From contig CAYZIY010000007.1 in the NCBI GenBank assembly GCA_964478715.1, positions 20,220-84,219 on the forward strand: DNA of 64,000 nt, written 5' to 3'. The notes under the pieces were generated by a model. That model worked only from the letters and a program-made list of their open reading frames with translations, ran no database searches and was not told where the DNA came from. The stretch is from an uncultured Planctomycetales bacterium. GTDB lineage: Bacteria; Omnitrophota; Gorgyraeia; Zapsychrales; JBDRMG01. The position numbers were made by a program, and so were the translations under genes. This document shows positions 18,006 to 53,916 of the stretch, in pieces (positions within the stretch are counted from its first letter, which is position 1; each line of letters begins with the position of its first letter).

Positions 18006-18585
18006 ACTCAAGCGCCAGCGTGACAGCTTGCAGCAATATGAGCATTATCTACCGACCTTACAGCTTAAGAAACAGCAGCTTCAAGCTAAAATTCTGGAAG
18101 TCAAAAGAGGATTGGCTGAAAGGGAAAAACTTTTGGATGAAAAAAAGCAATTCATTGAACAATGGAGCGGGTTGCTGGCCGACGTTCGCTTTGAAATCAG
18201 ACCATGGGTGATCCCTGTTCAGGTTGTAAAGGAAGATGTCAATATCGCAGGCGTCAGACTTCCGTTGTGCAAATCCATCCAGTATAAAGACATTGATTAC
18301 GATTTTTATGCAACTCCTTTTTGGACTGACCAAGCCATTGAGCGGATGAGAGATTTCTTTAATATCCTTATTGAAGTAAATCTGATCAAAAGACAAATAG
18401 ATATTCTGGCTCAAGAGTTACGCATAATTACTCAACGCGTTAATCTTTTTGAGAAGGTCAAAATACCCGAATGCATGGATCATATCAGAAAAATACGGAT
18501 TTATCTTGGTGATCAGCAGGCTAGTGCCGTTGGGATCAGTAAGGTTGCCAAGAAAAAGATCGAATCCCTCAGCGTGGTCGGATAA
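17977..18585 (+). CDS. atpD: V-type ATP synthase subunit D
   Basis: 202 aa, N-terminal [15 protein letters not shown]...LKKQQL coiled coil typical of subunit D. Confidence 0.85.
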
Positions 18586-18587
18586 CT

Positions 18588-20354
18588 ATGATTGTTTCCA
18601 TGAAAAAAGTTTATGTCATTACCCAAGACAAGGACGTCTCTCTTGCTGTAGGGGCACTTAAAAGTTTCGGTGCTTTGCACATTGAGCATGAACAATCTCC
18701 TTTAAGCGATGATGTGAACAAACTAAAAGAACAGATTGATACTGTTTCTCGCGTCATTGAATTTTTATCGATTAAGCAGGAGAAGCAGGGGAATATGGCC
18801 ACCGATCAGTGGCTGGAGACGGCACAGCGTATTGTCCGTACTCAGGAAGAGATTCATGAGCTTCAAGATGAAATGATTAGCCGCAAGATGGTCATTCAGC
18901 AATGGGAGCCCTGGGGCGATTTTTCTCTTAAAGATATCAATTATTTAAAGAACCATGGCATTTATCTCGGACTTTATCGAATTCCCTTAAAAGCATTGAA
19001 AAGCATCGGTGAGGATATTGTTTTGCAGGTGGTTTTCCGTTTTTCCGGCATGGCTTATTGTGTGGTCGTTAGTGATTATGAGATTAAACTTGATTTTGAA
19101 CAAATAAAATTTCCTGAAACGGGACTGAGTCAACTAAAGATATTGCAGAGCCAAGATGCTGACAAGCTAGAGAAAAAAGAAAAAAGACTCAAAGAAATGG
19201 CTCAATATCGGCAGTATTATCTGGAGCTGATCGAACAGCTGAAAATGGAATTAAAAACCAAGGAAGCTATCGCCGCTGTAAAACAGGCAGAATCTCTGGC
19301 TTATCTCAAGGGTTTTTGTCCGAAACCGTCTTGTGAGTCTCTGCGCCATTATGCCAAAAGAAAGAAATGGGGTCTTATCATGGAGGACCCGGGCGAAGGT
19401 GAAAGAGTGCCTACCATGCTTCGTAATCCAAGATGGGTCGAAATCATTCAGCCGGTTTTTAGGATGATGAATATTCTTCCCGGATATTGCGAAGTGGATA
19501 TCAGTCTGTTTTTTCTGATTTTCTTTTCAGTTTTCTTCGGTATGCTGATTGGCGATGCTGGATATGGGCTGGTTTTTGCAGGGCTGACGATTTGGGGACA
19601 TCTAAAAACAAAAGGAAAACCGAATCAGTCTCTTTTTATTCTGATGTATGTTCTTAGCGGTTGTGCGGTTATCTGGGGAGTCTTAACCGGGACGTTTTTC
19701 GGGCAAAAGTGGCTGGCTGGAAACATCCAGCCACTTTTGCCCTGGCTTGCGGATAATACGCATATCCAGAAACTTTGTTTTTTGATTGGCGCGATTCATT
19801 TAAGTATTGCGCACGCCTGGCGGGCGTTAATTAAATGGCCTTCGAAAAGCGTTGTCAGTGAATTTGGCTGGCTGAGTTTGCTTTGGGGGATGTATTTTCT
19901 GGCAAAGTTATTAATTTTGAATCAACCGTTGCCTCCATTTTCAAACGTTCTTTTTATCGGCGGAGCGCTGGGTGTAATATTTTTTAGCAAACCGCAAAAG
20001 AATATCCTGAAAGGTATGGCGGTTGGCTTAGGGGAATTATTAATTAATGTTCTAAATACGTTTACCGATGTGGTGTCCTATATCCGACTATTTGCCGTTG
20101 GTTTAGCGACCGTTGCCGTAGCTGATGCCTTTAATCAGATGGCGGCGGAAATCGGCATGGGGAGTTTTCTATCGGGCCTGGCCATGTCCCTGATTCTGGT
20201 TTTTGGACACTTGCTGAATATTCTTCTAGGAGCGATGGCGATCTTGGTACACGGGGTAAGATTAAATGTTTTGGAATTTTCTAGTCATTTGAATATGGAA
20301 TGGAGCGGGATCCCGTATGATCCCCTAAGAGAGACCAAAAACATCAAAGTTTAA
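18588..20354 (+). CDS. atpI: V-type ATP synthase subunit I (membrane a subunit)
   Basis: 588 aa, soluble coiled-coil N-terminal half and multi-TM C-terminal half with conserved Arg (YIRLFAVGLA). Confidence 0.85.
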   Translation: MIVSMKKVYVITQDKDVSLAVGALKSFGALHIEHEQSPLSDDVNKLKEQIDTVSRVIEFLSIKQEKQGNMATDQWLETAQRIVRTQEEIHELQDEMISRKMVIQQWEPWGDFSLKDINYLKNHGIYLGLYRIPLKALKSIGEDIVLQVVFRFSGMAYCVVVSDYEIKLDFEQIKFPETGLSQLKILQSQDADKLEKKEKRLKEMAQYRQYYLELIEQLKMELKTKEAIAAVKQAESLAYLKGFCPKPSCESLRHYAKRKKWGLIMEDPGEGERVPTMLRNPRWVEIIQPVFRMMNILPGYCEVDISLFFLIFFSVFFGMLIGDAGYGLVFAGLTIWGHLKTKGKPNQSLFILMYVLSGCAVIWGVLTGTFFGQKWLAGNIQPLLPWLADNTHIQKLCFLIGAIHLSIAHAWRALIKWPSKSVVSEFGWLSLLWGMYFLAKLLILNQPLPPFSNVLFIGGALGVIFFSKPQKNILKGMAVGLGELLINVLNTFTDVVSYIRLFAVGLATVAVADAFNQMAAEIGMGSFLSGLAMSLILVFGHLLNILLGAMAILVHGVRLNVLEFSSHLNMEWSGIPYDPLRETKNIKV

Positions 20355-20364
20355 CACAAGGAGT

Positions 20365-20826
20365 TTGATTATGGAAAATGCGGTTCTTTGGCAGCTTCAG
20401 GATTTAGGGGTCGCCGGTGCTTTAGCTTTGGCAGCGGCAGGTTCAGCTCTGGGCACCGGGGTAGCCGGTATGGCGGCTGTCGGAGCGTGGAAAAAGTGTT
20501 TTGCGATGAGTAAAGCGGCACCTTTTATCTTAACGGTTTTTGTGGGTGCGCCATTATCCCAAACGATTTACGGGATGATTGTGATGAATTCCTTAATCAA
20601 TAACGTGACTCAGGGAGATTTCTTCTGGGGCGCGGGTCTGCTCGGCGGAATAGCGATGGGACTGTCGGCCTGGATGCAGGGCAAAGCCGGTGCTGCCGCC
20701 GCCGATGCGCTAGCCGAAACAGGCAAGGGATTTGGAAATTATCTGATTGTTTTAGGGATTATCGAGACGGTCGCCCTGTTTGTTATGGTTTTTACTTTGA
20801 TGGGTACCGGGAAGATAGTTGGCTAG
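20365..20826 (+). CDS. atpK: V-type ATP synthase proteolipid subunit K
   Basis: 153-aa glycine- and alanine-rich hairpin protein with the essential acidic residue (GIIETVAL). Confidence 0.8.
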   Translation: MIMENAVLWQLQDLGVAGALALAAAGSALGTGVAGMAAVGAWKKCFAMSKAAPFILTVFVGAPLSQTIYGMIVMNSLINNVTQGDFFWGAGLLGGIAMGLSAWMQGKAGAAAADALAETGKGFGNYLIVLGIIETVALFVMVFTLMGTGKIVG

Positions 20827-20833
20827 ATTTAAC

Positions 20834-20907
20834 GGGGAATTAGCTCAGTTGGTTAGAGCGTCTGACTTACATTCAGAAGGCCAGGGGTTCGAGTCCTCTA
20901 TTCCCCA
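20834..20907 (+). tRNA. tRNA-Val (anticodon TAC)
   Basis: Acceptor stem GGGGAAT/ATTCCCC. D-arm GCTC...GAGC. Anticodon stem TCTGA/TCAGA with loop CTTACAT. T-arm CCAGGGG-TTCGAGT-CCTCT? 74 nt. Confidence 0.85.
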
Positions 20908-34656: not shown

Positions 34657-35786
34657 CACAAGCCAATCAGCATCCCGAAGCCAAACAGTATCATGCGATC
34701 AAAAACCGTCTGTTTTTTGTTCATTTAGGCCTTAATGTCTTATTTCTTGTTCTATTTTTCTTAAGCGGTTTTAGTGAACAAATTCGCTCAATGGCTTTTG
34801 GTTTGAGCAACAATTATTATTTGGGTAATGCGATTTATTTGATGGGTTTCTTTGCCATCCTTTTACTCATCAATCTTCCTTTAGATATCTATGAGGGATT
34901 TTTTCTGGAACATCGCTACCAGCTTTCTAACCAGGCTTTTTTATCCTGGTCAATCGATGAAATGAAAAAGGCCCTTTTAAGCGGCCTGATTATGTTGATT
35001 GCCATTGAAGTTGTATATTTCTTCCTACGAGCTTTTCCCAATCAGTGGTGGCTGTTAGCGACTTTTTTCTGGCTTTTCTTTAGCTTGATTCTGGCCCGTT
35101 TGGTGCCCACTGTTATTCTTCCTCTGTTTTACAAATATAAAGATTTCGACAATGCGCAAATTAAGGGGCGCATTATCAGTCTTTTTCAGAAAGTCGGTCT
35201 GAAGCTGAAAGATATCTATCTTATCGATTTCTCATCCAAGACAAAGAAGGTTAATGCCATGGTCTGCGGCCTGGGGCGCAATCGGCGGGTTATTTTAACC
35301 GATAATCTTTTAAATCTCTTCAGCGACGGAGAGATTGAGAGCATTGTGGCTCATGAAATGGGTCATTATGTTCACAAGGATATCATCAAATTAACAGCTT
35401 TTAATACATTGTTGACCTTTGGCAGTTTTTATCTGATGAATTTGGTTTTAAAACATACATTGAAATTTACACATATCAGTTCTGTCGATGATATTGCCTT
35501 TTTGCCTGTCATGGCCCTGGTTTTTCTTCTGTTTAGTTTTCTGATGATGCCGCTAGCCAATGCTTTCAGCCGTTTTCTGGAAGAGCAGGCCGATCGGTAT
35601 TCTCTTTTCTTGACGCAGAATGCGAAAGATTTCATGGCGGCCTTTGAGAAGCTGGGAGAGATGAATTTATCTGAATTCCAGCCCTCGGCCTTGGTAGAAA
35701 TGCTGTTTTATGACCACCCCCCGCTATCTAAGCGAATCCAAATGTGCCGGAAATTTCAGAATCAAGCATTGCATCCGAATTTATGA
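34653..35786 (+). CDS. M48-family (Ste24/HtpX-like) integral-membrane zinc metalloprotease
   Basis: Multi-TM with HEMGHYVHKD (HExxH) and downstream E in LEEQADRYS. Confidence 0.8.
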   Translation: MTQANQHPEAKQYHAIKNRLFFVHLGLNVLFLVLFFLSGFSEQIRSMAFGLSNNYYLGNAIYLMGFFAILLLINLPLDIYEGFFLEHRYQLSNQAFLSWSIDEMKKALLSGLIMLIAIEVVYFFLRAFPNQWWLLATFFWLFFSLILARLVPTVILPLFYKYKDFDNAQIKGRIISLFQKVGLKLKDIYLIDFSSKTKKVNAMVCGLGRNRRVILTDNLLNLFSDGEIESIVAHEMGHYVHKDIIKLTAFNTLLTFGSFYLMNLVLKHTLKFTHISSVDDIAFLPVMALVFLLFSFLMMPLANAFSRFLEEQADRYSLFLTQNAKDFMAAFEKLGEMNLSEFQPSALVEMLFYDHPPLSKRIQMCRKFQNQALHPNL

Positions 35787-37786
35787 ATCGCTTAAAGCAA
35801 AAAGTTGAGAATGAAAAAAGACGCTATCTGCGGCTTGCGCATGTTTATCCTGTGGAATTTGCTTTTTGCAATTTGCAGGGCCAACTCATTTCTTCCTGGC
35901 AGCAGGGTTTTACCTGCAATATCAGTCAGGGCGGTATTTGTCTTAATGCGCAGGCCAGTTCTCTGGTAGTCGATCATCTAAAGGAAGAAAAAGAGCGTTA
36001 TCTTCGGCTCAAGATCAGTATTCCGCTTTTCTCTCCGCCGGTTGAGGCATTTTCTAAGGTTGCCTGGATGGCTCAGCAGACTGAATCTTATCCGAGAGGA
36101 TTTCTTATCGGTCTGCAGTTTTTGGAGATCCAGAAATCGCAAGCTAGACGGATGCTTAGATATGCGCGGATTATTAAACGCACGCCTCTGGTGATGGCCG
36201 CATTTATCTGTATTTTGTTTACTTTTCTAGCCGGGCATACCTACATGAATTATCGTCTGCGGATAAGTAATGAAGAACTGGTTCAGCAGTTTGTGTTCTT
36301 GCAAAGCGACCAGACGAAAAACCAGAACCGCCTGAAGACCATTCAAGGTGAGAAAACACTTCTGGCAGAAACCATCAATGATTATAATGCTGATATTCGC
36401 GATCTCAAGCGGGGGCTTGATCGCGCTCTTGGCGAAATTAATAGAAAGACACAGAACCAGAAAGTATTGCGCGATCAAGCCAATCAGCTGACACGAACTA
36501 TCGCCGAGCTTCAAACCAGGATTCAGCTTTTGGAGAGTGAAAAGGCCCCTTTAGCCAATCAGCTTGAGATTCTTGTGAAAAACGAAGAAATGATCCAGGA
36601 CCGATTAAGACTCATGGAAAGAAATAAGCGGGACTTAGAGAATGAAATTGTTGCCCAGATGATTCAGTGGCTTAAAAATCATCAAAATCAGTCGACTGGA
36701 CTGATTTCGAGTTTCGAGGGGCCGGTCGGTATCATCAAGCATTGGGCTTTTATTTACGATCAGGCCCTGGCCGCGAATGTCTTTCTTATTGATAATGATC
36801 TTAAGGCTTGCAAAAAGATTCTCAATTTCTTTGCCCGGAAAATGCAAAACGATTTTAATGGTTTTCATAATGCCTATTACAGCGATACTGAAGATATTGC
36901 CGAATTTACGATTCACAGCGGTCCCAATATTTGGGCTGGCATGGCTATTGCCCAGTATGCGGATCAAACAGGAGATCGCCAGTATTTGCCTTTGGCGCAA
37001 AAGATTGCCGATTGGCTTATTGCTTTACAGGAACAGGATAAAGACGGAGGTTTACGCGGAGGACCGGACGTTTTCTGGTATGCAACTGAGCATAATCTAG
37101 ATGCCTATGCTTTTCTTGACATGATGGCGAAGCTGACCGGTGAGGAAAAATATTATTTGGCCCAGAAAAAGATTTTGAGCTGGCTTGAAAAACATGCCAT
37201 GGTGGCTCATGAAAACGATCACCGCAAGCCGCCGGTAAAAAGAGGCCGCGGAGACGCCACAATCGCCACCGACACATTTGCCTGGTCCCTGGCTGCGATC
37301 GGCCCTCCCGTCTTGAGACAATTACAGATGGATCCTGAGGCGATCATGGCATTTGCCGAAAAACACTGCAAAGTCCAAACAAGATTTCGCCGACCCAGCG
37401 GAGTAGTTATTGATGTAGAAGGTTTTGATTTTTCCAAACCGGCTCATGTGGCTCGCGGTGGCATTCTTTCTCCGGAATGGACTTCTCAGATGATTGTCTC
37501 GTTTCAAATTTTGGCCGATGATTTCCAAAAGGAAAATGATTTAACCAAGACTGTTTTTTACCGTCAAAAAGCCGTCCACTATCTCAATGAACTCAATAAA
37601 CTGATTATATCGAGTCCTTCTCCGCGCGGGTTGGGTGAAGGATGTCTTCCTTATGCGACTGTCCCGCAGGCTGATACAGGTCACGGCTGGCGCACGCCCA
37701 AAGGGACAGATACCGGATCGATCGCTGGTACGGCCTATATGATTATGGCTATTTATGGCTACAATCCGTTGGAGCTGGGAGGCTAA
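35783..37786 (+). CDS. PilZ-domain / TM / coiled-coil / (alpha/alpha)6-barrel-like multidomain protein
   Basis: N-terminal RRYLRL...NISQGGICL (PilZ RxxxR and D/NxSxGG), a second PilZ-like half, a TM helix, about 150 aa of coiled coil, and a C-terminal region with six-hairpin-glycosidase-like composition. ATGA overlap with the M48 gene. Confidence 0.5.
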   Translation: MNRLKQKVENEKRRYLRLAHVYPVEFAFCNLQGQLISSWQQGFTCNISQGGICLNAQASSLVVDHLKEEKERYLRLKISIPLFSPPVEAFSKVAWMAQQTESYPRGFLIGLQFLEIQKSQARRMLRYARIIKRTPLVMAAFICILFTFLAGHTYMNYRLRISNEELVQQFVFLQSDQTKNQNRLKTIQGEKTLLAETINDYNADIRDLKRGLDRALGEINRKTQNQKVLRDQANQLTRTIAELQTRIQLLESEKAPLANQLEILVKNEEMIQDRLRLMERNKRDLENEIVAQMIQWLKNHQNQSTGLISSFEGPVGIIKHWAFIYDQALAANVFLIDNDLKACKKILNFFARKMQNDFNGFHNAYYSDTEDIAEFTIHSGPNIWAGMAIAQYADQTGDRQYLPLAQKIADWLIALQEQDKDGGLRGGPDVFWYATEHNLDAYAFLDMMAKLTGEEKYYLAQKKILSWLEKHAMVAHENDHRKPPVKRGRGDATIATDTFAWSLAAIGPPVLRQLQMDPEAIMAFAEKHCKVQTRFRRPSGVVIDVEGFDFSKPAHVARGGILSPEWTSQMIVSFQILADDFQKENDLTKTVFYRQKAVHYLNELNKLIISSPSPRGLGEGCLPYATVPQADTGHGWRTPKGTDTGSIAGTAYMIMAIYGYNPLELGG

Positions 37787-44054: not shown

Positions 44055-46916
44055 TTACATTTCTTTCGGTTGAGTTAAGAGAATTTCGTCATCCGGGGTC
44101 AGAGCCAGCGGGTGATAATCCCAGGTATTTCCGCTTAAGGCCGAGGCGGCCGTGGCATTTAACGGCAGTTCCACAGAAAGAATTTCCGAAATAAAAACAA
44201 GGTCTCCCGGAGGTCGGCTACTTGAGAGCAGATAGCTGATATCGTAAATTTTTCTCGGCTCGCCATTAAAACTCAGCAAATCCCAGGGGGCCGCTTCTGT
44301 GACACCAAACGCCGATTGTCCTGACTGATCACGTCCGCGAACCCAGTAGGCGGAATGCCCCGAAAAATTATCTATTAAATTCTGTGGTTCCGGTGACAAT
44401 GCGCTGAAAGGAATAGGATTCTCCGTATATGACTGGTCCCAGTATCTGCTGTTGGGCTCAATCGGGCCGTGAAGAGGCCGGAATTCATTACCCAGCTGGA
44501 TGAAAGATCCGGTAACAACAGGTTCATTTTGATGCCAGCAGGATAAAGGATCTCCGCCGCAAGGCGGGGTTAAGTGATCTCCGGGATCGCTGTGAAAATT
44601 CCAGAGTTCTTCGGTGACATGCGGATCCCAGGCTCTGGGCCCAATAAGAGAGATATTATAATTAATCACATTGTTGCCAGAACTGTCTTCAACGGTCCCC
44701 TCGACGAAATTGGGCATTTGCGGCTCATCGGGATTTTCATCATCCGGAAACATATCATAAAGATAATTGTAGCCATCCTGGCCGTTTTCATCAAAGGCAT
44801 AATCGGTCTCAAAACCGGATCCTTCCGGTAGAGTGATATAGACAGCTGAAGCGGGATTGATAGGAGAGACTACTGTTTCTGCGTAAGGATAGTCTGGATG
44901 ATGATGCGGCATGCGCAGATAGCGGGGATAGCGAAAGCCTTCGCTTACTAAAAAGACATCATCGCTGACAATGGCGGCCGAGGGTTTTCGGGCATTTGTA
45001 TTGTAATGACCTTCCAGAATCAGATCGCCATGGATGACGAAGGTGGCTCCGTTGGGGGCACCGTCTTTTTGAGGGAGTTCTCCGGCATTATACACGGCAG
45101 CACCGACGTAATACTGCCTTTGATCCCCTTCGGATTCGATAAATTGTACGTCAGAAATATATAGCCCGTTTTCAGGCAGCCAGTCTGAAGAATCATTGGC
45201 CGCGCAGTCTTTCAAGGCCGACATGTTTGTTCGCAAAACTGTCATGGGAAGCCCGTCGACATGCCGGATAAAACTGCGCAGTTCAAAAAGGCTCTCTTCG
45301 TCTGATCCGCATTCTATCGGGGGAGCAATGGACCGATTCTCATAAGGGTTGTCAAAATCGAAACGCAGATCCGTATCATCGGTAACGGGAATTCCGTTTA
45401 CGCTGACTTCGAGGTAATAAGTACCGTTTTTTTCTTTGGCTGCGGCCACAAAGGCCTGGTCCGAATTTTTATTGAGAATCGAGTTCAGATTCATTTCAGG
45501 CGGGCTGATGGTGCTGACATCATCCTGGAACACTCCGGCGAGTCCTTCAATTCTATAAGGGGTATCTTCTCCGGAAGGATAATTTCGATTGATGCTTTCA
45601 CTGAAGGCAAAAAATTCCGGTTGCTTTTCGGAATCTGTCAACTGCATGCCGGTCACCCGCGGATCGCCCGGCGCATGACGGCCCATATACATGAATCTGT
45701 CATTGTAAGCGGTGCCAAAACGATTGGGGAGATAATAGTCGTTGATCTTGGGCATCGCCTCGTAATAATTTTCGTTATTGGAAGTTCCGTCGGCGCAGGT
45801 ATTTGTTGAATGGCAATTGATATCCTGCTGCCAGTACACATAGGCCCGGCTTTCTGACGACCCGTCCCAGGCCCCCGCATCAAACGGTGGATTTAAAAAT
45901 GGTGTCTGCGGCCAGGGCCAGATTGGCAGATTGTTGGATTCTTGGTCCCATTCGACGAATTTGCCTGTAGCGGTATCAAAGGCCAGCAAGCCCTGTCTGT
46001 CACCGGCATAATGGCCGTCCATTTTATTGATATAGTTTTCCTGATCCCACAGCCATCTATCTAGTGTATCGTTAGGTAAAATCAGAGGTCGGCGCAGATG
46101 GGGATAGATATTTGTATAATCATGACTATCGACTGCTCCTCCGCTGACAGGATCATATACCTGGCCGTCGATAAAATCATCAGGATGGACAAAGGGCGAG
46201 AAGGCATAGGAAATCTTTCCGGTGGCCTTAAGCTCATCCACGTTTTCGATGATGGTGTAATCATTCAAAAGGATATTGCCGTTAGTGTGGATTTTTCCGC
46301 CCTGGGCGTTAAGCAGCTGCCATCCGAGAGAGAGGTCTTCGTTGTTAAACAGGGCATATTGAAACATATCGGTGATTTCTATTTTCATGGCAAAAAGGCG
46401 GGTCACCGTATTATGAATGCCCAGAGCCAGGACATAGAGAGCGTTCTCATTGTCTTTACAATATGTTTTTAGGGCAAAAAGAGGATGGCCGTTTTCATCC
46501 AGCGCTCCGTAGTCAATAGAATCAATACCCCGGCTCACCAAATAAGGGAAATCATCAGCCGATAACTGGTGGTTAAATACAATACCGGGGATGTCGGAAT
46601 CTGTCGGGCAATTATCAACACAATGTTCAAGCGCGTTATTTTCGGTATTGAGAATATGGGTGGTGAATTCACCTGTGGATATCGATGCATTATTTTTGAT
46701 TTCATGATAGGCGTATTCTACGCCTTTACGGGCATGCAATTCCGCGGCCAAACTGTCATGCAGGATATGCCCTTGATTATTGCCCGAGACAGCCCGGGCA
46801 AAATTGGCCGCGGCATAGGTGACCACCAGGATCAAGACAGGATACAAAACCAGCGAGAAGGCGATGCCTTTTTGATTCTTTTTTCTTTGATCTTTTTTTA
46901 AAATTATTTGGCTCAT
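44055..46916 (-). CDS. Giant (953 aa) secreted or pilus-associated protein with a TadE/TadG-like pseudopilin N-terminus. Paralogue of 49211-52015
   Basis: N-terminal KGIAFSLVLYPVLILVVTYAAANFARAV resembles the TadE-like anchor (RGAAAVEFALVLPVLLLLLFGIVEFG). Shared blocks with the paralogue include KIHTNGNILLNDYTIIENV...FVHPDD, ILEGHYNTN...SEGFRYPRYL..HHPDYPYAE and a C-terminal PWDLLSFN. Confidence 0.6.
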   Translation of the reverse strand: MSQIILKKDQRKKNQKGIAFSLVLYPVLILVVTYAAANFARAVSGNNQGHILHDSLAAELHARKGVEYAYHEIKNNASISTGEFTTHILNTENNALEHCVDNCPTDSDIPGIVFNHQLSADDFPYLVSRGIDSIDYGALDENGHPLFALKTYCKDNENALYVLALGIHNTVTRLFAMKIEITDMFQYALFNNEDLSLGWQLLNAQGGKIHTNGNILLNDYTIIENVDELKATGKISYAFSPFVHPDDFIDGQVYDPVSGGAVDSHDYTNIYPHLRRPLILPNDTLDRWLWDQENYINKMDGHYAGDRQGLLAFDTATGKFVEWDQESNNLPIWPWPQTPFLNPPFDAGAWDGSSESRAYVYWQQDINCHSTNTCADGTSNNENYYEAMPKINDYYLPNRFGTAYNDRFMYMGRHAPGDPRVTGMQLTDSEKQPEFFAFSESINRNYPSGEDTPYRIEGLAGVFQDDVSTISPPEMNLNSILNKNSDQAFVAAAKEKNGTYYLEVSVNGIPVTDDTDLRFDFDNPYENRSIAPPIECGSDEESLFELRSFIRHVDGLPMTVLRTNMSALKDCAANDSSDWLPENGLYISDVQFIESEGDQRQYYVGAAVYNAGELPQKDGAPNGATFVIHGDLILEGHYNTNARKPSAAIVSDDVFLVSEGFRYPRYLRMPHHHPDYPYAETVVSPINPASAVYITLPEGSGFETDYAFDENGQDGYNYLYDMFPDDENPDEPQMPNFVEGTVEDSSGNNVINYNISLIGPRAWDPHVTEELWNFHSDPGDHLTPPCGGDPLSCWHQNEPVVTGSFIQLGNEFRPLHGPIEPNSRYWDQSYTENPIPFSALSPEPQNLIDNFSGHSAYWVRGRDQSGQSAFGVTEAAPWDLLSFNGEPRKIYDISYLLSSSRPPGDLVFISEILSVELPLNATAASALSGNTWDYHPLALTPDDEILLTQPKEM

Positions 46917-46942
46917 GATTATTGCTCGTTTTGCTTACTTTA

Positions 46943-47812
46943 TCAGCGTATTTCTTTAGGCGCCGTTCGGCAGTCATCAGGGCAAGTTACTGATGTTTCA
47001 TCACCGCTGCAAATTCCGTCACCGCAGCGCGTGCAATCTTCCGGACAGCTTATGGCGGTTTCATCACCGTTACACATTTCGTCACCGCAATGTTGACAAT
47101 CTTGAGCACAATTGTCCGGGTCTTCATCAATGTCGCAGTTTCCATCGCCGCAAAAAGTTTGAGGCTCACAATCCGCGGGGCAGGTGGTTTCGCTCTCAGT
47201 GGCATCGCAGACGCCGTCACCGCAGACCACACACACGCCGCAGTCCTGAGGGCAGGAATAACAGTCTTCGGATTGGTCACATTTATCATTGCCGCAGAAC
47301 TCGCAAGTGGTCATATCTTGCTGACAGTTTTCGCAGGTTTCGTCGGGGTCTTCTATGCCGTTTCCGCAGTCCGGCAGTTCATCGCAGTCCTGGGGGCATT
47401 CTTCGAACGTTTCGCGGATATCGCATAGGCCGTTACCGCAGAGAATGGAGGTATAAATATTATCGATATCATTAAGCTGAACTTTTGTTTCGATGTTCAT
47501 GGCTCTGATAGAGGGATAAAGCTCTTGATCGGGTGTGATTTTGATGTGCACCGTCTGGTTACTCAAGTTTCGGGTTACTTCCAGAGAATCAGCCACACCC
47601 AGAGTGCGCCACGAGCGGATTTCGGGGTCAGGAACCTCATCCGCGCCGGTTTGCATCCCGCCGCCAGGTTGGCCGCCTCCGGGGAGGCTATCCGCCCAAG
47701 ATGTCGCCGATGCGAGGCTTATGCAAAACCAAACGATTAAAAAGAAAAAGACGCTAAAAAAGGAAAGATTTTTTGCTAGGATGTTTATCTTGAATGTTTT
47801 CATTGAGAGCAT
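46943..47812 (-). CDS. Secreted cysteine-rich repeat protein with about 7 tandem CGDGxC-x8-10-CPxDC modules
   Basis: Signal peptide MKTFKINILAKNLSFFSVFFFLIVWFCISLASA. Repeats include CGNGLCDIRETFEECPQDC, CGDGVCDATESETTCPADC, CGDGNCDIDEDPDNCAQDC and CGDGICSGDETSVTCPDDC. The ORF-track N-terminal extension into the upstream gene is probably spurious, so the start is uncertain (47812 or 47803). Confidence 0.55.
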   Translation of the reverse strand: MLSMKTFKINILAKNLSFFSVFFFLIVWFCISLASATSWADSLPGGGQPGGGMQTGADEVPDPEIRSWRTLGVADSLEVTRNLSNQTVHIKITPDQELYPSIRAMNIETKVQLNDIDNIYTSILCGNGLCDIRETFEECPQDCDELPDCGNGIEDPDETCENCQQDMTTCEFCGNDKCDQSEDCYSCPQDCGVCVVCGDGVCDATESETTCPADCEPQTFCGDGNCDIDEDPDNCAQDCQHCGDEMCNGDETAISCPEDCTRCGDGICSGDETSVTCPDDCRTAPKEIR

Positions 47813-47819
47813 GTTCTTT

Positions 47820-48905
47820 CTATTTTTCATTATTTTCTGGACCCTCATTATGGACAATAATCCCATCGGCGATATACGTATGCAGAGGATTGACGACAAA
47901 ATTATAGCTTGTAACTGTTTCATGAATTTCGTCGATCGAATTAATGCGAAAGTCACGGCCTTGTTCATCGGTCAGAAAGTCTCCTATCCGCAAAGTGTCC
48001 AACCGCACATAACGGCCCCGGCTTAAGACCGGATGATTAGGAGAGACTTTGATCGAATCATTGATGATCCAGTATTTATGAGTATTATTGTGCGACAGGG
48101 TGCCTGTGACACGGTCGGGTTGAAATTTTTGACTGGAAGCATCGAAGGCCAGAACGATATCCCCGACAGCGATATTTTCAATTGGCTTGGTGGATCCCCC
48201 GGCCATCGTGATTTTGGTCCCGGCCAGAAAACAGTTTCCGGCGCCGCAGGTTCCACAGTCGGCGCTGCACGAGCAGGCGGTCTCTCCGGCCTCACCACAG
48301 CAGACCCCATCCCCGCAGACAATTGCCCCGCACTCCGCGCAATTGCACACACTTTCTCCTCGGGTGGATTCACAGACCCCGTCACCGCAGCAATCGGTGC
48401 CGGTGGCTATATAATCTTCCTCGCACCAGGAGCAGTCTTCACCAAGATCCACATCTACTTTGCCGTCTCCGCAGAAATCTTCGTAACAAAGCACCCGCTC
48501 TATCAATTGCCCGTCGGTTGCGCCGCCGGAAGCCACATAATATTCATAATAACAACCGATATCATTAAGCGCGCCGAATTTAATATTGTCGTATTCATTA
48601 ATATAGCTTTCGCCGACTTTGGTGGGAATTTTAAAGCGGATCAGATGGCCCGAGCACGGGGGAGAATCCAATTCGTCACAGTTTTTGATGGTAACCATTT
48701 TGATATCCGATTGGCTAAGTATATTGGCCATACGCCCGACCGCATTACGGGCATCGGAGACCTGCTGAATAGCTTCATCCGCGATCTTGTAGCTTTCGCG
48801 TGTTTGAATCAAGGATGTGGCAAAGGCCCCGCCGATGATCACCAGAATAGTCATCACGGCCAGGATCTCAGTCAGGGTAAAGGCGTTTATTCTAAAGATT
48901 TTCAT
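47820..48905 (-). CDS. Type IV pilin/pseudopilin-like protein with extracellular Cys-rich repeats and a C-terminal Hint (bacterial intein-like) domain
   Basis: MKIFRINA-FTLTEILAVMTILVIIGG is a class III signal with Glu at +5. Repeats CGDGKVDVDLGEDCSWC, CGDGVCESTRGESVCNCAEC, CGDGVCCGEAGETACSCSADC. Hint block CFLAGTKITMAGG...IAVGDIVLAFD...VSPNHPVL...HTYIADGIIVHN ending in HN then E. Confidence 0.65.
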   Translation of the reverse strand: MKIFRINAFTLTEILAVMTILVIIGGAFATSLIQTRESYKIADEAIQQVSDARNAVGRMANILSQSDIKMVTIKNCDELDSPPCSGHLIRFKIPTKVGESYINEYDNIKFGALNDIGCYYEYYVASGGATDGQLIERVLCYEDFCGDGKVDVDLGEDCSWCEEDYIATGTDCCGDGVCESTRGESVCNCAECGAIVCGDGVCCGEAGETACSCSADCGTCGAGNCFLAGTKITMAGGSTKPIENIAVGDIVLAFDASSQKFQPDRVTGTLSHNNTHKYWIINDSIKVSPNHPVLSRGRYVRLDTLRIGDFLTDEQGRDFRINSIDEIHETVTSYNFVVNPLHTYIADGIIVHNEGPENNEK

Positions 48906-49107
48906 TGCCGGCTCCTAAACAAAAAACCCATCCGCAAAGGATGGGTTTTAAAGAGTTGACAGTATGTTGGCGGCCAGGCTGTCTCACCGATTAAATCGGC
49001 GGACCCTATAGCTTTGCGTCCTATCCTTGCGGATTCCGCTGAAAACTTAAGCGGATCTACCGTTGTTAGCGGCGGAAGTTTACCTTTATCAGCATCTAAT
49101 AGTACTC
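48906..49107 (-). promoter_or_regulatory. Conserved structured 5' leader RNA (copy 1) with a terminator-like hairpin abutting the RBS. Candidate riboswitch or attenuator
   Basis: Minus-strand reading: ...GCGGAATCCGCAAGGATAGGACGCAAAGCTATAGGGTCC...GCCAACATA...AAAACCCATCC-TTTGC-GGATGGGTTTTTTGTTT-AGGAGCCGGCA-ATG. Homologous to copy 2 (53659-53916) with compensatory stem changes. Confidence 0.45.
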
Positions 49108-49210: not shown

Positions 49211-52015
49211 TTATGTGGGGGGTTCGTATTTATTTCTCCAATGATCAGAAGTCCATGCAATTTCCACTACCCTTGATCGCAAACCCAGCATCTCTCCGGG
49301 AGGGTAGATCGGATCCGCAAGCCCTTCCCGGCGCAGATAATCCTGATCGTATTCATGGGCCGGCTGGGGATTGCTGGCCAAAAGGTCCCAGGGAGTCGAT
49401 TTATTATCTGTAGCCCGGCAAGGATGGGGATCCTTATCGGAGTTCCATCCAATCTGGGTATCTAAGTCAGAAAAGGGAATGGCAAAGTTCTTGTAAGAAT
49501 TCTGGTTGCAATCTCGGTTGTTGGCCGTCGTGGGAACCAGGCCGACAGGAGGAAACTCATTACCCAGTTGAATGACCGAGCCGATAATAACCGGCTGGAT
49601 TTCCGTCCAGCTGGAAGGGTCGGGAGCATTAAGGAGATCTCCAAGTTCTGTATAATAAGACCAGCGTTCCAAGAGATCAGGGTCAGGGGCATATTTTCCG
49701 ATCAAAGAGACATTATACACATAAGAATTCGGAGTTTCGGGGTCATTATCATGATCGACTGGGCCGATCGTATCCTGATCGGATTCCCAGGGTACTTTGT
49801 TTGCCATATTGCCATCTTGTTCTGCGAGCCAGTTGGCAACGCCTGGAATAAAATCGGCACGGAAACCATGTCCATCCTGGTTAAACTCTTCAAAATCCAT
49901 TCCACTTAATTCTGCTTCGGGATAGGACGGATGATGCTGGGGCCACGTTAATTTCCGGGGATAATCAAAATCTTCGGAAACTAAAGAGATTCTATTGGAG
50001 GCAATGATGGCTGCCGATTGCTTGGTCCAATCAGCATAGCCAGCATCAGCCTCATGGACATAATTGACATGGCCTTCCAAAATGGCATTATTGGCAATAA
50101 CGGTTAGTCCTCCTTGGGGCAATTGCCGCGCGTTGTAGAGCGCTACTCCGATCGGCTTGTCCGTGACCTGTGGAGAGTCTGCGGCAATAATGATCCCGCT
50201 CGAAGGCAGAAAATTTGGCTGTCCGCCTTCAGGAGGATTAACGACGCCAAATTGATGACAGCGATTTAAGTGTTCGATATTCATGCGAATCGTATTCTCG
50301 GGCAGTCCCGATTTGGGATTGATGAATTCTTTTTTTTCAAAGAGAGTGTCATTTATATCTTCGGAGCAATTTAGATCTGCGCAGCATCTTTCGTTTTTCA
50401 TCCATGAAGTCGTATCGTTTAATTTGATACTATTATTTCCCACATTGATAATATATTCTTTAAGCGCGCTTTCTTCAATCTCTTGCTCGATAGTCATTTG
50501 AATTTGTCCCGCACTGTGGCTGGATGAGTCACTTGAACTGTTGATTGTCTTTAAGGTATCAAGATGTATTTGGGGCACGGTGATTTCTTCAACACCGTCT
50601 GTGCTGTCCTTGAGCACATTAATTTGATCTTCCACAACGGCTGCCAGGCCTGTGATGGTGTCGTCTAAGGGATTATCCGGATCATCGCCTTGATCTATTT
50701 CAATGGGAAAATGGGACACATAATTATCCCAGTCCGACTCTTGATCAACAGAGTCGGTTAACCGGACAGGGGCTGTAAGATTACGTCCGTAATAAACTTC
50801 TTTATCATAGGGGGAGGAATCCGGCAGGATACTGGGAATAAAGTAACCGTTGATCTTGACATTGGCTTCATAATAGTTGGCATTATTATTTCCGTAAGGA
50901 TCTTGCCAGGCGCATGTATTTGTTTCATAACAACTGAGATCTTGTTCCCAATAGGAATTAACGAGGGTATTATGCCATTCAGGTTTATTATTAATCCAGC
51001 TTCCTTCATACCACATATTTTGATCACCCCAAGCAGGATCCCATATATAAGGAGAAGTGTCTTCCGGCACAGGTGCCGTGAAATTCGTATCCCAATAAAA
51101 AGGCCAGACGGGTTGCTTAATGTCCTGTGTTATTGTCTCTCCCTTCCAGGGGATAATACCATTTGTTGACATACGAAAAAGCCCCCGACGCATCCCTGGA
51201 TAATGGCCGTCCATGCTGTTGACATAATTGCCTTGGTTTAGTCCCACAGGAACCACTTCACCGCCCGAATAGGTTAAGTCATTCGGGTTAACGTGCGGCC
51301 AACGTCTGGTCTGATACTTGTTTTTATCATCCGGGTGGACAAAAGGTGTCATTTCCCATTCAAATTTTCCTGCTGTTGATATTTCACTGACATTTTCGAT
51401 TTCCACAAAATCATTGAATTTAATTTTCCCGTTGGCGTGGATTTTCGCCTGGCCGGCATTGATTTTTTTCCATCCGAAATCCGCATCATTCGAGTAAAAG
51501 GCCAGATAATCAAAAAGAGGCGTTCCTTTTATGATCCCCACAAAAAGACGGGTTTGGCCTTCTCTGTTGGTTTCTGCGAAACTGGTTGATTTCACTAGCG
51601 CATAATAGGCCCCGTCTTCCATGTAGACTTTAGCTTGGAAAATACTTCCCGTTTCTTCGTCACGAACCTGATACACATAGTCTTCGTTTTTATTAATCTG
51701 GGCGTCGGGAACATACAAATCAGCGGTGGCCGGCGGGTCATCGTGGGGGGCCAATGTGTCAGTCCCTGCTGCGATTTTGTGTGTCAGAAACGGATTACTG
51801 GTATATTGCCGGGCGGCAATTTCGGCAAAGACATATTCCACGCCGCTCATGGCGGTCATCTCGGTTTGATTGCGGGTATAAATCCGCCGGAAATGACGGG
51901 TATTATGCGTAGATTGCACAAAAACCGTTATTCCGTATCCTGCCAGCAGAATCAACAGAGGCAGGACAATCACATTCATGAGAAATTGTCCGTTTTTGTT
52001 TGAAATGCGTATCAT
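49211..52015 (-). CDS. Giant (934 aa) secreted or pilus-associated protein with a TadE/TadG-like N-terminus. Paralogue of 44055-46916
   Basis: N-terminal NGQFLMNVIVLPLLILLAGYGITVF (TadE-like). Conserved blocks as listed for the paralogue. RBS AGGGAGA upstream. Confidence 0.6.
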   Translation of the reverse strand: MIRISNKNGQFLMNVIVLPLLILLAGYGITVFVQSTHNTRHFRRIYTRNQTEMTAMSGVEYVFAEIAARQYTSNPFLTHKIAAGTDTLAPHDDPPATADLYVPDAQINKNEDYVYQVRDEETGSIFQAKVYMEDGAYYALVKSTSFAETNREGQTRLFVGIIKGTPLFDYLAFYSNDADFGWKKINAGQAKIHANGKIKFNDFVEIENVSEISTAGKFEWEMTPFVHPDDKNKYQTRRWPHVNPNDLTYSGGEVVPVGLNQGNYVNSMDGHYPGMRRGLFRMSTNGIIPWKGETITQDIKQPVWPFYWDTNFTAPVPEDTSPYIWDPAWGDQNMWYEGSWINNKPEWHNTLVNSYWEQDLSCYETNTCAWQDPYGNNNANYYEANVKINGYFIPSILPDSSPYDKEVYYGRNLTAPVRLTDSVDQESDWDNYVSHFPIEIDQGDDPDNPLDDTITGLAAVVEDQINVLKDSTDGVEEITVPQIHLDTLKTINSSSDSSSHSAGQIQMTIEQEIEESALKEYIINVGNNSIKLNDTTSWMKNERCCADLNCSEDINDTLFEKKEFINPKSGLPENTIRMNIEHLNRCHQFGVVNPPEGGQPNFLPSSGIIIAADSPQVTDKPIGVALYNARQLPQGGLTVIANNAILEGHVNYVHEADAGYADWTKQSAAIIASNRISLVSEDFDYPRKLTWPQHHPSYPEAELSGMDFEEFNQDGHGFRADFIPGVANWLAEQDGNMANKVPWESDQDTIGPVDHDNDPETPNSYVYNVSLIGKYAPDPDLLERWSYYTELGDLLNAPDPSSWTEIQPVIIGSVIQLGNEFPPVGLVPTTANNRDCNQNSYKNFAIPFSDLDTQIGWNSDKDPHPCRATDNKSTPWDLLASNPQPAHEYDQDYLRREGLADPIYPPGEMLGLRSRVVEIAWTSDHWRNKYEPPT

Positions 52016-52054: not shown

Positions 52055-52783
52055 TCATTCGGGTTCTCCCCAGTTATTGAATTCACAATTAAGTTCTTGT
52101 CCGCCTTCGGCTACATAGATCGACAAATCAACAAGGTCTGATATGTTGATTCCGTATTCATTACCTCCGCTACCTGAATTATTAACATTGGCGCGCTCGG
52201 GGTCTTCGGGAGGCGGGCAGATTGTATTTGGTGGCTCTGTTTCAGTACAGGCATCACTGCCTTCAGCACAACAGTTGGGCAGATCACCAAACATATAAGC
52301 GGATAATAAATCTAGGTCCGCTTTATTGACTATTCCGTCTCCGGTGAGCTCTCCGCATTCCGGGGCCGGCGGGCAGTCTTGAGCGCACCATTGCGAATTT
52401 TCGCTGGGGGGATCGCAAAAACCATCCCCGCAGACGGTAATGGTCAGAGGATCCGAGTCATTATCCGGATAAACAGTGGTGCTGAGCTTAATTTCCCCGC
52501 CTGATGGATAAGAGGAAGAGCTTATCTCCGGTTGAGCGGCGTAGAAACCGATCTGGACTGTTTTTGGGATATAGGTTGTGGAAAAAGTACCCTTTTCGAT
52601 GCGGCTGGCGATTACCTGAGAGGAGCGCACGGTTTCGACTGGTTGGGCGTAGGCAATTTGACCGCCTATAAGGAAAATCCAAAAAAAGACAGTTATCCCG
52701 ACAACCATCACAAATAGCATACTGAGAAAGGGCCTAATCTCATTTAACGTTTTTACATTAGGATAATCCATTAATCTAATCAT
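52055..52783 (-). CDS. Signal-anchored small protein with one Cys-rich repeat and a dockerin-like calcium-binding repeat pair
   Basis: TM anchor FLSMLFVMVVGITVFFWIFLIGG. CGDGFCDPPSENSQWCAQDC repeat. TGDGIVNKADLDLLSAYMFG and NNSGSGGNEYGINISDLVDLSIYV fit the dockerin D-x-D/N-x-DG-x-V/I-N-x2-D-x3-L-x2-Y pattern. Strong RBS AAAGGAG. Confidence 0.55.
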   Translation of the reverse strand: MIRLMDYPNVKTLNEIRPFLSMLFVMVVGITVFFWIFLIGGQIAYAQPVETVRSSQVIASRIEKGTFSTTYIPKTVQIGFYAAQPEISSSSYPSGGEIKLSTTVYPDNDSDPLTITVCGDGFCDPPSENSQWCAQDCPPAPECGELTGDGIVNKADLDLLSAYMFGDLPNCCAEGSDACTETEPPNTICPPPEDPERANVNNSGSGGNEYGINISDLVDLSIYVAEGGQELNCEFNNWGEPE

Positions 52784-52815: not shown

Positions 52816-53658
52816 CTATCTGTCCACGGGGGTCTCTCCGGTATCACAGTCGGCTGCGCAGGAAGAAACCGTTTCTCCGATACTGGCATCGCAAAAGCGG
52901 TCACCGCACCAGCCGAAATTCTCTTGTGCGGCCGCGACCTGATTTTCGCAGATACCGCAGTCGGCCGGACATTTTAAGCAATCTTCATGGATATCACAGA
53001 ATCCGTTCGGGCAGCAGACACCTCCGCAATCCTCAGGGCAGGACAGGCAGTTTTCTCCCAAATCCTCTTCAGGGTTGGGACCGCCAGTTTCCGGAATGCC
53101 GTCTTGGCAGATTCGGTCGCCGCAGGTACAGCGGTCTTCGCAATCAGGAAAACAGGTGTCGCAGTCTTCGCCGTAGTCTTCATTACAAGTACCATCGCCG
53201 CAATAGGGCTGGCTTTCATCGCAAATAACCTGTTTGTAGAGTTGATTGTCATTGACCAAGTATCTGTACCAGCAATATTGGTAACATTCATTCTCAGAAA
53301 TACAAGCGCCGAAAGCGACTCGGCCGTCATTGATTTCTAATGTATCCACAATAGGAGTTTTGAAGATTAAATAACTTCCTTGACAGACCGGCTCTCCCTC
53401 TTCGGGGCATGGATGGTGAACCGGAGCGCCCGGTTTATTGCTCTGGGGGGGCACCGACTGCTGAACATGGGCAGCGACACGCTGTAAAATATTTTCCAGA
53501 TGAATATTTTGATCGCTGCGGATTTTCGATATAATCGACGCCTGCATTCCTTTTTGCGCGGCAGCCGAAATCCCGCCGATGACAATGACCGAAGCCGCGA
53601 TGGAGACGACAAGCTCGGTTAGCGTAAATGCTTCTTTATTTTTTGTGTATCTTTTCAT
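52816..53658 (-). CDS. Type IV pilin/pseudopilin-like protein with 4 extracellular Cys-rich repeats
   Basis: MKRYTKNKEA-FTLTELVVSIAASVIVIGG prepilin-type N-terminus. Repeats CGDGTCNEDYGEDCDTCFPDC, CGDRICQDG...CLSCPEDC, CPNGFCDIHEDCLKCPADC, CGDRFCDASIGETVSSCAADC. The ORF-track start at 53712 would translate through the leader hairpin. The ATG at 53658 has RBS GGGAGAAG. Confidence 0.6.
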   Translation of the reverse strand: MKRYTKNKEAFTLTELVVSIAASVIVIGGISAAAQKGMQASIISKIRSDQNIHLENILQRVAAHVQQSVPPQSNKPGAPVHHPCPEEGEPVCQGSYLIFKTPIVDTLEINDGRVAFGACISENECYQYCWYRYLVNDNQLYKQVICDESQPYCGDGTCNEDYGEDCDTCFPDCEDRCTCGDRICQDGIPETGGPNPEEDLGENCLSCPEDCGGVCCPNGFCDIHEDCLKCPADCGICENQVAAAQENFGWCGDRFCDASIGETVSSCAADCDTGETPVDR

Positions 53659-53916
53659 GTCTTCTCCCAATTTCTGTTGTAACCGAAAAAAATCCCACTC
53701 CTTAAACTTCAAGGAATGGGTTTATCCGTTTTGTTGGCAGCTGGCTGCCCCTCTGCTTTCTTGCCTGCCTTTCAGAAAACAAGCGAAAACAAGAAGCGGG
53801 GTCCTTTAGCTTTGTGCCCCATCCTTGCGGTCCCGCGTGGGTTTCTCGCGGGATCTCCGGTCTCAAAGGATTGCAGGCCGGAGAATAGTTTACCTTTTTC
53901 AACACCAATGAATTGT
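53659..53916 (-). promoter_or_regulatory. Conserved structured 5' leader RNA (copy 2) with a terminator-like hairpin abutting the RBS
   Basis: Minus-strand reading: ...CCCGCGAGAAACCCACGCGGGACCGCAAGGATGGGGCACAAAGCTAAAGGACCCC...GCCAACAAA...AAACCCATTCCTT-GAAGTTT-AAGGAGTGGGATTTTTTT-CGG...GGGAGAAGAC-ATG. Confidence 0.45.

Follow-up and report, generated by a model that had tools for sequence, protein, structure and literature searches.

A diverged dockerin in a small secreted protein of a three-gene pseudopilin cassette with predicted c-di-GMP riboswitch leaders, probably from Omnitrophota

A total of 64,000 nucleotides (nt) from an uncultured bacterium (assembly GCA_964478715.1, contig CAYZIY010000007.1, positions 20,220 to 84,219 of the forward strand), a stretch referred to as the window, were analysed around a minus-strand gene for a protein of 242 amino acids (aa). 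Judged by its sequence, the part of this protein lying between cysteines C143 and C233 is a genuine but diverged type-I-like dockerin. Moreover, the gene occupies the middle of a cassette of three genes conserved at several loci, in which it stands between a pseudopilin gene with a class III signal and a gene for a larger protein of 934 aa, and which is preceded by a leader joining a probable riboswitch aptamer of the cyclic di-GMP (c-di-GMP) I class to a terminator-like hairpin. The gene and its product have the following parts, where ORF stands for open reading frame, HMM for hidden Markov model and AF2 for AlphaFold2:

52055..52783, minus: ORF of the 242-aa secreted dockerin protein, stop codon included
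52646..52783, minus: signal peptide, aa 1-46, with predicted cleavage between AYA and QP; hydrophobic helix 13-40 in the AF2 models
52436..52645, minus: family-specific N-terminal beta-rich domain, aa 47-116, aligning in all middle proteins including the dockerin-less paralogue
52373..52432, minus: a single Cys-rich repeat (CGDGFCDPPSENSQWCAQDC, aa 118-137), scoring 30 bits with the HMM made from 41 cassette-protein repeats
52085..52357, minus: dockerin module C143-C233, flanked by two family-invariant cysteines, 49.2 bits against a 29-module dockerin HMM
52286..52354, minus: F-hand 1, GELTGDGIVNKADLDLLSAYMFG, aa 144-166, Ca-type loop E145-D156 and then a helix; all 12 PDB phmmer matches fall here
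52193..52285, minus: Cys/Pro-rich insert between the F-hands, aa 167-197, 31 aa with 4 Cys, not present in 7 relatives
52100..52192, minus: F-hand 2, ANVNNSGSGGNEYGINISDLVDLSIYVAEGG, aa 198-228, Ca-type loop with 5-6 additional residues and then a helix; second half of the dockerin HMM, 23-26 bits

The original prediction had placed dockerin-like repeats at 52094-52357 (aa 143-230), citing the segments TGDGIVNKADLDLLSAYMFG (aa 147-166, nt 52286-52345) and NNSGSGGNEYGINISDLVDLSIYV (aa 201-224, nt 52112-52183), and this call was borne out by three agreeing sources, namely the dockerins of the PDB, a custom dockerin HMM and Pfam-positive full-length relatives. When the C-terminal 125 aa were compared with the PDB (phmmer), all of the 12 matches obtained at E≤10 were dockerins and all of them lay on segment 1, the best being 2y3n_B (E=0.0066). 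The custom HMM, which was constructed from 29 Pfam-verified Cys-bracketed modules of unrelated multi-dockerin proteins (P0002-P0004 and P0012), gave 49.2 bits on C143-C233, while the best of 2000 shuffled sequences reached 7.0 bits, and it covered both halves of the module (model positions 1-28 on aa 143-170, and 27-65 on aa 190-233). F-hand 2 also aligned to the second F-hand of the relatives. Furthermore, all eight family members scored from 26 to 65 bits with this HMM, and the gathering score of Pfam Dockerin_1 (22.9 bits) was passed by four of the five full-length relatives (24.7-44.5 bits). These relatives (P0005-P0008 and P0010) align to the 242-aa protein end to end with 27-35% identity, and P0008 bears the NCBI name 'dockerin type I repeat-containing protein [Candidatus Omnitrophota bacterium]'.

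A profile of the whole family gave matches to PDB dockerins spanning both repeats (2y3n_B, E=1.3e-9; 2ccl_B, 6e-9; 1ohz_B, 2e-8), whereas calmodulin-type EF-hands were far poorer, with E-values of 0.0036 or above, and an identity as a calmodulin-like EF-hand pair was discarded on this comparison. Within the module, D149 and D156 of F-hand 1 and D216 of F-hand 2 are invariant in the family, as are C143 and C233, which bracket the module and whose position suggests a disulfide clamp. In the AF2 model made from a six-sequence alignment, helices were found at 154-164 and 214-225 with predicted local distance difference test (pLDDT) values of about 70-78.

Regarding the protein as a whole, the ATG of its gene is preceded by an AAGGAG Shine-Dalgarno sequence at 8 nt. 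The protein had been described as signal-anchored; a signal is indeed present, but it is probably a cleavable Sec-type signal and not an anchor, since A46 is invariant and the A-Q site is kept across the family alignment. In the class III signal test (Gly/Ala at -1, hydrophobic alpha-1 and Glu at +5) the 242-aa protein showed no prepilin motif. With a Sec-type signal here and the prepilin motif in the upstream gene, the protein is best seen as a partner within the cassette and not as a pilin. The domain at aa 47-116 gave no match in Pfam and PDB searches, and AF2 places strands at 62-70, 75-82 and 98-104 in it with low confidence.

The gene lies on the same strand as its two neighbours, with gaps of 32 nt and 39 nt (cassette A: pseudopilin, 242-aa protein and 934-aa protein), and a second, diverged cassette (cassette B, 48905..44055) comes directly after it. 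Besides the gene already described, these cassettes comprise:

52816..53658, minus: pseudopilin of cassette A, some 280 aa long when started at the ATG at 53658, with a class III signal cut between KNKEA and FTLTE, Glu+5, and then C-terminal Cys-rich repeats
49211..52015, minus: cassette A large protein, 934 aa, whose N-terminus lacks Glu5 and consists of a basic stretch followed by an invariant Gly and then some 22 hydrophobic residues
47820..48905, minus: pseudopilin of cassette B, 361 aa, in which a class III signal (N_methyl motif) and Cys-rich repeats are followed by a Hint domain at the C-terminus (PT-HINT, 49.1 bits)
46943..47812, minus: middle protein of cassette B, about 289 aa if translated from Met53 of a 341-aa ORF, with a signal peptide, the beta domain and six Cys-rich repeats
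44055..46916, minus: large protein of cassette B, 953 aa, matching its 934-aa paralogue from end to end (BLASTP, E=8e-87, 29% identity)

The upstream gene, earlier described as pilin-like, fits that description by its class III signal, by the N_methyl motif found in eight of nine pseudopilin orthologues and paralogues, and by PDB pilin matches, as the pseudopilin family profile matched the N-terminal helix of type IV pilins (7tgg, E=0.0031; TcpA); its placement is conserved in the cassettes. In the stretch 53659-53712 (minus), the listed TTG start of its 298-aa ORF falls inside the terminator-like hairpin, and the alignment of homologues supports the ATG at 53658 as the real start. The downstream gene had been called a giant putative adhesin, of which the large neighbour stands but its size does not, being 934 aa only. 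Its N-terminal pattern is common to all nine homologues aligned, and the protein is 29-38% identical to the 953-aa paralogue and to the large proteins of the loci L002 and L007 described below, while Pfam, NCBIfam and PDB searches with it gave no match. As for cassette B, its pseudopilin is 31% identical to that of cassette A, and its middle protein has no dockerin, although it is 32% identical to the 242-aa protein over aa 92-183 (BLASTP, E=1e-6).

Some further observations concern these genes. The 341-aa ORF of cassette B (46943-47968, minus) shares about 150 nt with the end of the gene upstream of it, and its real start is probably Met53 (47812) or Met56, just ahead of the signal peptide. 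The Hint/pretoxin-HINT autoprocessing domain of the cassette B pseudopilin, which itself has Glu+5, spans residues 221-353 approximately, and its HN motif is followed by only some 9 residues. For the C-terminus of a pilin, self-cleavage or ligation would be out of the ordinary. In locus L002 the Hint domain sits instead on the middle protein of the third cassette. A repeat of about 20 residues, CGDGxCDxxExxxxCPxDC, occurs on all three types of cassette protein (41 copies), in the window at 52373-52432, 46943-47812 and 52816-53300 (minus) and also in the cassettes of L002, L006, L007 and L008, as well as in the protein P0011. No Pfam or NCBIfam model corresponds to it, and its sole outside match was the tail of the cysteine-rich domain of the RET receptor (7aml, E=0.0012, together with a weak RET_CRD Pfam match).

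Nine cassettes with identical gene order were found at five loci, namely the window, L002 (GCA_964515035.1, CAZEUO010000004.1), L007 (GCA_043812495.1, JBDRMG010000066.1) and the short contigs L006 and L008. Of the three cassettes of L002, two have a dockerin and the third has Cys repeats and a Hint domain, while both of the two cassettes of L007 have a dockerin. The cassettes of the window, L002 and L007 occupy a syntenic site with shared flanking genes, including Era, DHH and PfkB. Across the nine middle proteins, the N-terminal domain and the first Cys repeat are common to all, while the C-terminal module varies between a dockerin (seven of nine), Cys-repeat arrays and Cys repeats with Hint, the two proteins without a dockerin carrying Cys-repeat arrays, one of them with Hint. 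The family is rare: an exhaustive HMMER search of 1.84 billion cluster representatives found about six relatives of the 242-aa protein, and k-mer-seeded homologue searches with this protein and with the large protein returned only the query itself in each case. An alignment search with the large protein found the L002 contig only among 185,579 species genomes and no locus in the JGI metagenomes. Three candidate members (P0013, P0014 and P0015) were set aside, as they proved to be dockerin or Ig proteins with no relation to the family. The lineage carrying the cassettes is probably Omnitrophota; the syntenic L002 and L007 have conflicting labels ('uncultured Planctomycetales bacterium' and 'Candidatus Omnitrophota bacterium', respectively). 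The third cassette of L002 contains runs of N.

The order of promoter, aptamer and terminator upstream of the cassettes is the classic layout of attenuation, and it was found ahead of both cassettes of the window:

53951-53924, minus: promoter-like site of cassette A, upstream of the aptamer
53732..53903, minus: probable c-di-GMP-I class aptamer upstream of cassette A (RF03167, 31.2 bits, E=1.9e-4, below the gathering score)
53694..53720, minus: intrinsic-terminator-like hairpin with a 12-bp stem and a T run, situated after the aptamer and ahead of the pseudopilin ATG, likely the expression platform
49142-49115, minus: promoter-like site of cassette B, upstream of the aptamer
48966..49094, minus: c-di-GMP-I aptamer upstream of cassette B (RF01051, 35.3 bits, gathering score 35)
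48949-48923, minus: terminator-like hairpin of cassette B, downstream of the aptamer

The hairpins after these two aptamers are the two strongest terminator-like hairpins of the region. The aptamer of cassette A, which contains long hairpin insertions, has the same position as the gathering-level RF01051 matches ahead of cassette B and of the first cassettes of L007 (792-875, 54.3 bits) and L002 (3961-4084, 36.9 bits), so that c-di-GMP-I aptamers precede cassettes in three genomes. Upstream of the third cassette of L002 no riboswitch was found, and upstream of the second cassette of L007 only a weak one. The leaders are predicted to bind c-di-GMP, and their control could act in either direction. 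A second link to c-di-GMP in the window is a 680-aa protein (35744-37786, plus) with an N-terminal PilZ (c-di-GMP receptor) domain, a coiled-coil-like middle part and a large unannotated C-terminal region.

Based on these observations, the dockerin is proposed to act as a head for docking or adhesion that faces outward and can be exchanged, mounted on the tip complex of a type IV filament under c-di-GMP control, a reading that we consider to have somewhat better than an even chance. The operon would be read in the order promoter, c-di-GMP-I riboswitch, terminator, pseudopilin, 242-aa protein and the pseudopilin-like protein of about 900 aa lacking E5, and the 242-aa protein would be a Sec-exported accessory subunit of this minor-pilin-like operon, probably rich in disulfides. 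Its beta domain and single CGDGxCD Cys repeat would tie it to the cassette by binding the pseudopilin pair, and its C-terminal 91 residues would form a Ca2+-dependent head facing outward. Such a division of labour, with a binding N-terminal part and an exchangeable dockerin, is suggested because the N-terminus is shared by all middle proteins while the C-terminal module varies. Once c-di-GMP signalling switches the operon, the head would be presented together with the pseudopilin tip complex, into which it may be incorporated, and any partner of the dockerin would be encoded elsewhere or on another cell, and not in the neighbouring gene.

A number of results weigh against this reading, in part or as a whole. 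Regarding the identity of the module, neither Pfam-A, with its model Dockerin_1 (PF00404), nor NCBIfam gave a match at E≤10, be it for the whole 242-aa protein, for its C-terminal 125 aa or for either segment by itself. The original prediction had considered that it would fail if there were no dockerin HMM hit and the segments were generic Asp/Gly-rich loops; the Pfam hit is indeed missing, but generic loops do not agree with the custom HMM, the PDB dockerins and the Pfam-positive relatives, and the miss is most likely due to the module being split. The spacer between the F-hands, of about 10 residues in the relatives, is replaced here by the 31-aa insert with four Cys, and this insert is not a nested CGDGxCD repeat, as it scored 5.3 bits with shuffled sequences reaching up to 10.5 bits. 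Of the ligand positions of a dockerin loop (1, 3, 5, 9 and 12, typically D or N), 5, 9 and 12 are canonical in loop 1 (ELTGDGIVNKAD, 12 residues), while the ligand positions 1 and 3 are E and T, variants that occur in five and four of the eight family members, respectively. Loop 2, NVNNSG[SGGNEY]GINISD, has N at positions 1 and 3, S at 5 and D at 12, and it carries 5-6 extra residues; a similar loop insertion is found in one verified module of P0002. Because of the E and T of loop 1, the insertion of loop 2 and the 31-aa split, neither Ca2+ binding nor the canonical fold is assured, and the dockerin of the 242-aa protein should be taken as a putative Ca2+ binder. Moreover, the six-sequence AF2 model has a low mean pLDDT of 59 (44 for the single-sequence model), and its top Foldseek match, although a dockerin (6kg9), was not significant (E=0.43, probability 0.85).

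As for the partner and the filament, no Pfam cohesin was found at E≤1 in seven large proteins and nine pseudopilins, nor was any found among the 30 other ORFs of the window that were scanned with Pfam. These ORFs are housekeeping genes, for example of pyrimidine synthesis, the V/A-type ATPase, DsbA and the PilZ protein, and the remaining flanking ORFs match, by position and length, the housekeeping genes flanking the L002 and L007 cassettes, where the Pfam matches were obtained. The same 30 ORFs included no pilus assembly genes (GspE/PilB ATPase, GspF/PilC platform or prepilin peptidase). The large protein resembles GspK and PilX by its N-terminal pattern only, with neither HMM nor PDB matches behind it. 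Finally, the proportion of seven dockerins in nine cassettes is biased, as three cassettes were found through dockerin similarity, and among those found only through their neighbours two of four have one. No glycoside hydrolase was matched by Pfam in the scanned ORFs or cassette proteins either, so the earlier remark that neither a cohesin nor a glycoside hydrolase lies nearby was confirmed within this scope.

Other explanations of the module were also considered. It might be an adaptor within the cassette, the dockerin plugging into a cohesin-like beta-sandwich of the 934-aa protein or the pseudopilin that escapes detection by sequence, and thereby joining the three products in the tip. The tight linkage of the dockerin gene to both neighbours on one strand, a gene arrangement conserved in several genomes, and about 900 residues with no detectable domain, which leave room for a cryptic cohesin, would all suit such an adaptor. 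Nevertheless, besides the absence of a Pfam cohesin, the PDB profile search of large proteins and pseudopilins yielded nothing beyond the pilin N-termini, and the large proteins are colinear whether their cassette has a dockerin or not, so that no domain gained or lost with the dockerin could be taken as a proxy for the cohesin. Two cassettes have no dockerin at all, it being replaced there, and what all middle proteins have in common is the N-terminal domain. The adaptor is hence distinctly improbable, and the docking onto the neighbouring large protein that had been proposed found no support.

The main rival, which we judge unlikely, is that the F-hand pair serves a structural role only, steadying a small disulfide-rich extracellular protein through Ca2+ with no cohesin-type partner, as may be true of many non-cellulosomal 'dockerins'. 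No cohesin was found in the cassette proteins, the papers on Omnitrophota dockerins describe no Omnitrophota cohesin partner (the word 'cohesin' is absent from the 2026 preprint), and the cohesin domains in PMC8542988 are reported for Cloacimonadota and not for Omnitrophota. The module is also embedded among Cys-rich structural repeats and bracketed by invariant cysteines, and the family profile weakly matches EF-hand proteins too. However, the dockerin is kept in seven of nine cassettes despite an overall identity of 27-35%, dockerins outscore EF-hands by a wide difference (1e-9 vs. 4e-3 or worse), and P0002-P0004 each carry 8-16 related dockerins with a Cys bracket, arranged in tandem, which suggests multivalent binding. 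These three proteins have no catalytic domain, and P0004 has a peptidoglycan-binding domain in addition.

That the middle protein is a cargo, exported as a free dockerin-tagged factor by a type II-secretion-like pseudopilus, is very improbable. A signal of Sec type and not of prepilin type would suit a cargo, and near the giant adhesin genes of Omnitrophota there are described loci that resemble type II secretion and contain class III signal peptide genes. Against it, no GspD, GspE or GspF genes were present among the scanned ORFs of the window, and each duplicated cassette pairs exactly one middle gene with its two pseudopilins, as is more usual for a structural partner than for a cargo. Lastly, a chance resemblance, in which Asp/Gly-rich loops would have no dockerin ancestry, might have been thought of from the missing Pfam and NCBIfam matches of the 242-aa protein itself; it has practically no chance, being refuted by the score of 49.2 bits against 7.0 bits or less in the shuffled sequences, by PDB matches that are all dockerins and by the Pfam-positive homologues.

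In comparison with known systems, the module shares with the type I dockerins of cellulosomal enzymes (PF00404; 2Y3N, 1OHZ and 2CCL, chain B) the two tandem F-hands, with a Ca-type loop plus helix and the pattern (D/N)-x-x-D-(L/V)-x-x-L-x-x-Y, and these are the best and essentially the only PDB sequence matches of the 242-aa protein. Unlike them, it has a Cys bracket, a 31-aa insert, a longer loop 2, E and T in loop 1 and no Pfam match, and it sits on a small non-enzymatic protein, with no cohesin or carbohydrate-active enzyme among the scanned ORFs. Regarding filaments, the type IV minor-pilin/PilY1 tip and the GspH-I-J-K tip also combine class III signal proteins with a large protein; one member of the cassette has no Glu5, like GspK and PilX, and the cassette resembles the PilY1 case in its non-pilin Sec-exported partner. 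Calcium sites are known in PilY1 and GspK. In contrast to those tips, no sequence or HMM similarity extends past the N-terminal helix, there are three genes and not four to six, Cys-rich repeats are present in all cassette members, and no assembly machinery was found nearby in the scanned ORFs.

Verru_Chthon cassettes (TIGR02599), which occur in Verrucomicrobia/Chthoniobacter, within the PVC group, and have a very large protein among their products, are likewise repeated cassettes around prepilin-type N-termini. Membership in this group was discarded, as the cassette B pseudopilin scored 22.7 bits in the N-terminal helix only against a cutoff of 256.5, and the other cassette proteins gave no NCBIfam match. 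With respect to regulation, pilA1 of Clostridioides difficile is a case of c-di-GMP riboswitch control of a pilin gene. The c-di-GMP regulon of this species is the subject of PMC6200980. The cassettes of the window share with such control the layout of an aptamer and then an intrinsic-terminator-like hairpin directly upstream of a pilin-type gene. Here, unlike in that case, the predicted aptamers are of class I with long hairpin insertions, and the copy of cassette A is below the Rfam gathering score.

Another parallel is that of the 'Dockerin-type giant proteins' of Omnitrophota (bioRxiv 10.1101/2023.11.21.568195), with nine PF00404 domains in one giant ORF (PMC10066038). These dockerins are non-cellulosomal and proposed to be adhesins, type IV pili are nearly universal in the phylum (PMC10066038; bioRxiv 10.1101/2023.11.21.568195), and the giant genes are flanked by type II secretion-like loci, class III signal peptide genes and PilZ genes. 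The domain family, probably the phylum, the proposed role in adhesion, and the genomic association with class III signal peptide genes and with c-di-GMP signalling are common to both; unlike the giant proteins (>7,000 aa with tandem arrays), the protein described here has a single dockerin in 242 aa and belongs to a three-gene pseudopilin operon with its own riboswitch leader. Dockerins outside cellulosomes have been known since the work of Peer et al. 2009, cited in PMC6461901, and the literature search found no paper describing a dockerin within a pseudopilin cassette.

Other features of the window were noted in passing. A DsbA-like thioredoxin-fold protein (2500-3384, plus) could serve the disulfide-rich secreted proteins of the cassettes. 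A V/A-type ATPase operon (E, A, B, D, I and c subunits; 13729-20826, plus) is followed by tRNA-Val (20834-20907) and tRNA-Asp. In addition, tRNA-Glu (1026-1101, plus) overlaps the listed start of a D-Ala-D-Ala carboxypeptidase ORF (1056-1997, plus), so the real start of the latter must be further downstream.

Overall, Pfam overlooks split or diverged dockerins such as this one, which family-level profiles recover. Non-cellulosomal dockerins are common in uncultured lineages, yet they are almost never found with a known partner or role. The dockerin described in this work is tied by its gene to a small and conserved pseudopilin operon with a predicted regulation by c-di-GMP, in a lineage that is probably Omnitrophota, a phylum thought to be host-attached and known for type IV pili and dockerin-rich giant proteins. 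Going further, the cassettes might encode a type IV filament with a dockerin 'plug' at its tip, gated by the riboswitches, swappable with Cys-repeat or Hint heads and able to latch onto receptors of a cohesin-like kind, carried either by giant surface proteins of the same cell or by host or prey cells; this extension of the exchangeable-head reading is rather unlikely in our estimate, but if it were true it would amount to a modular and switchable means of docking one cell to another in host-dependent Omnitrophota, with parts of the cellulosome mounted on the chassis of a pilus. With three proteins and one riboswitch, the cassette is a compact and testable system in which it may be learnt what non-cellulosomal dockerins bind and whether pilus-like filaments carry exchangeable heads.

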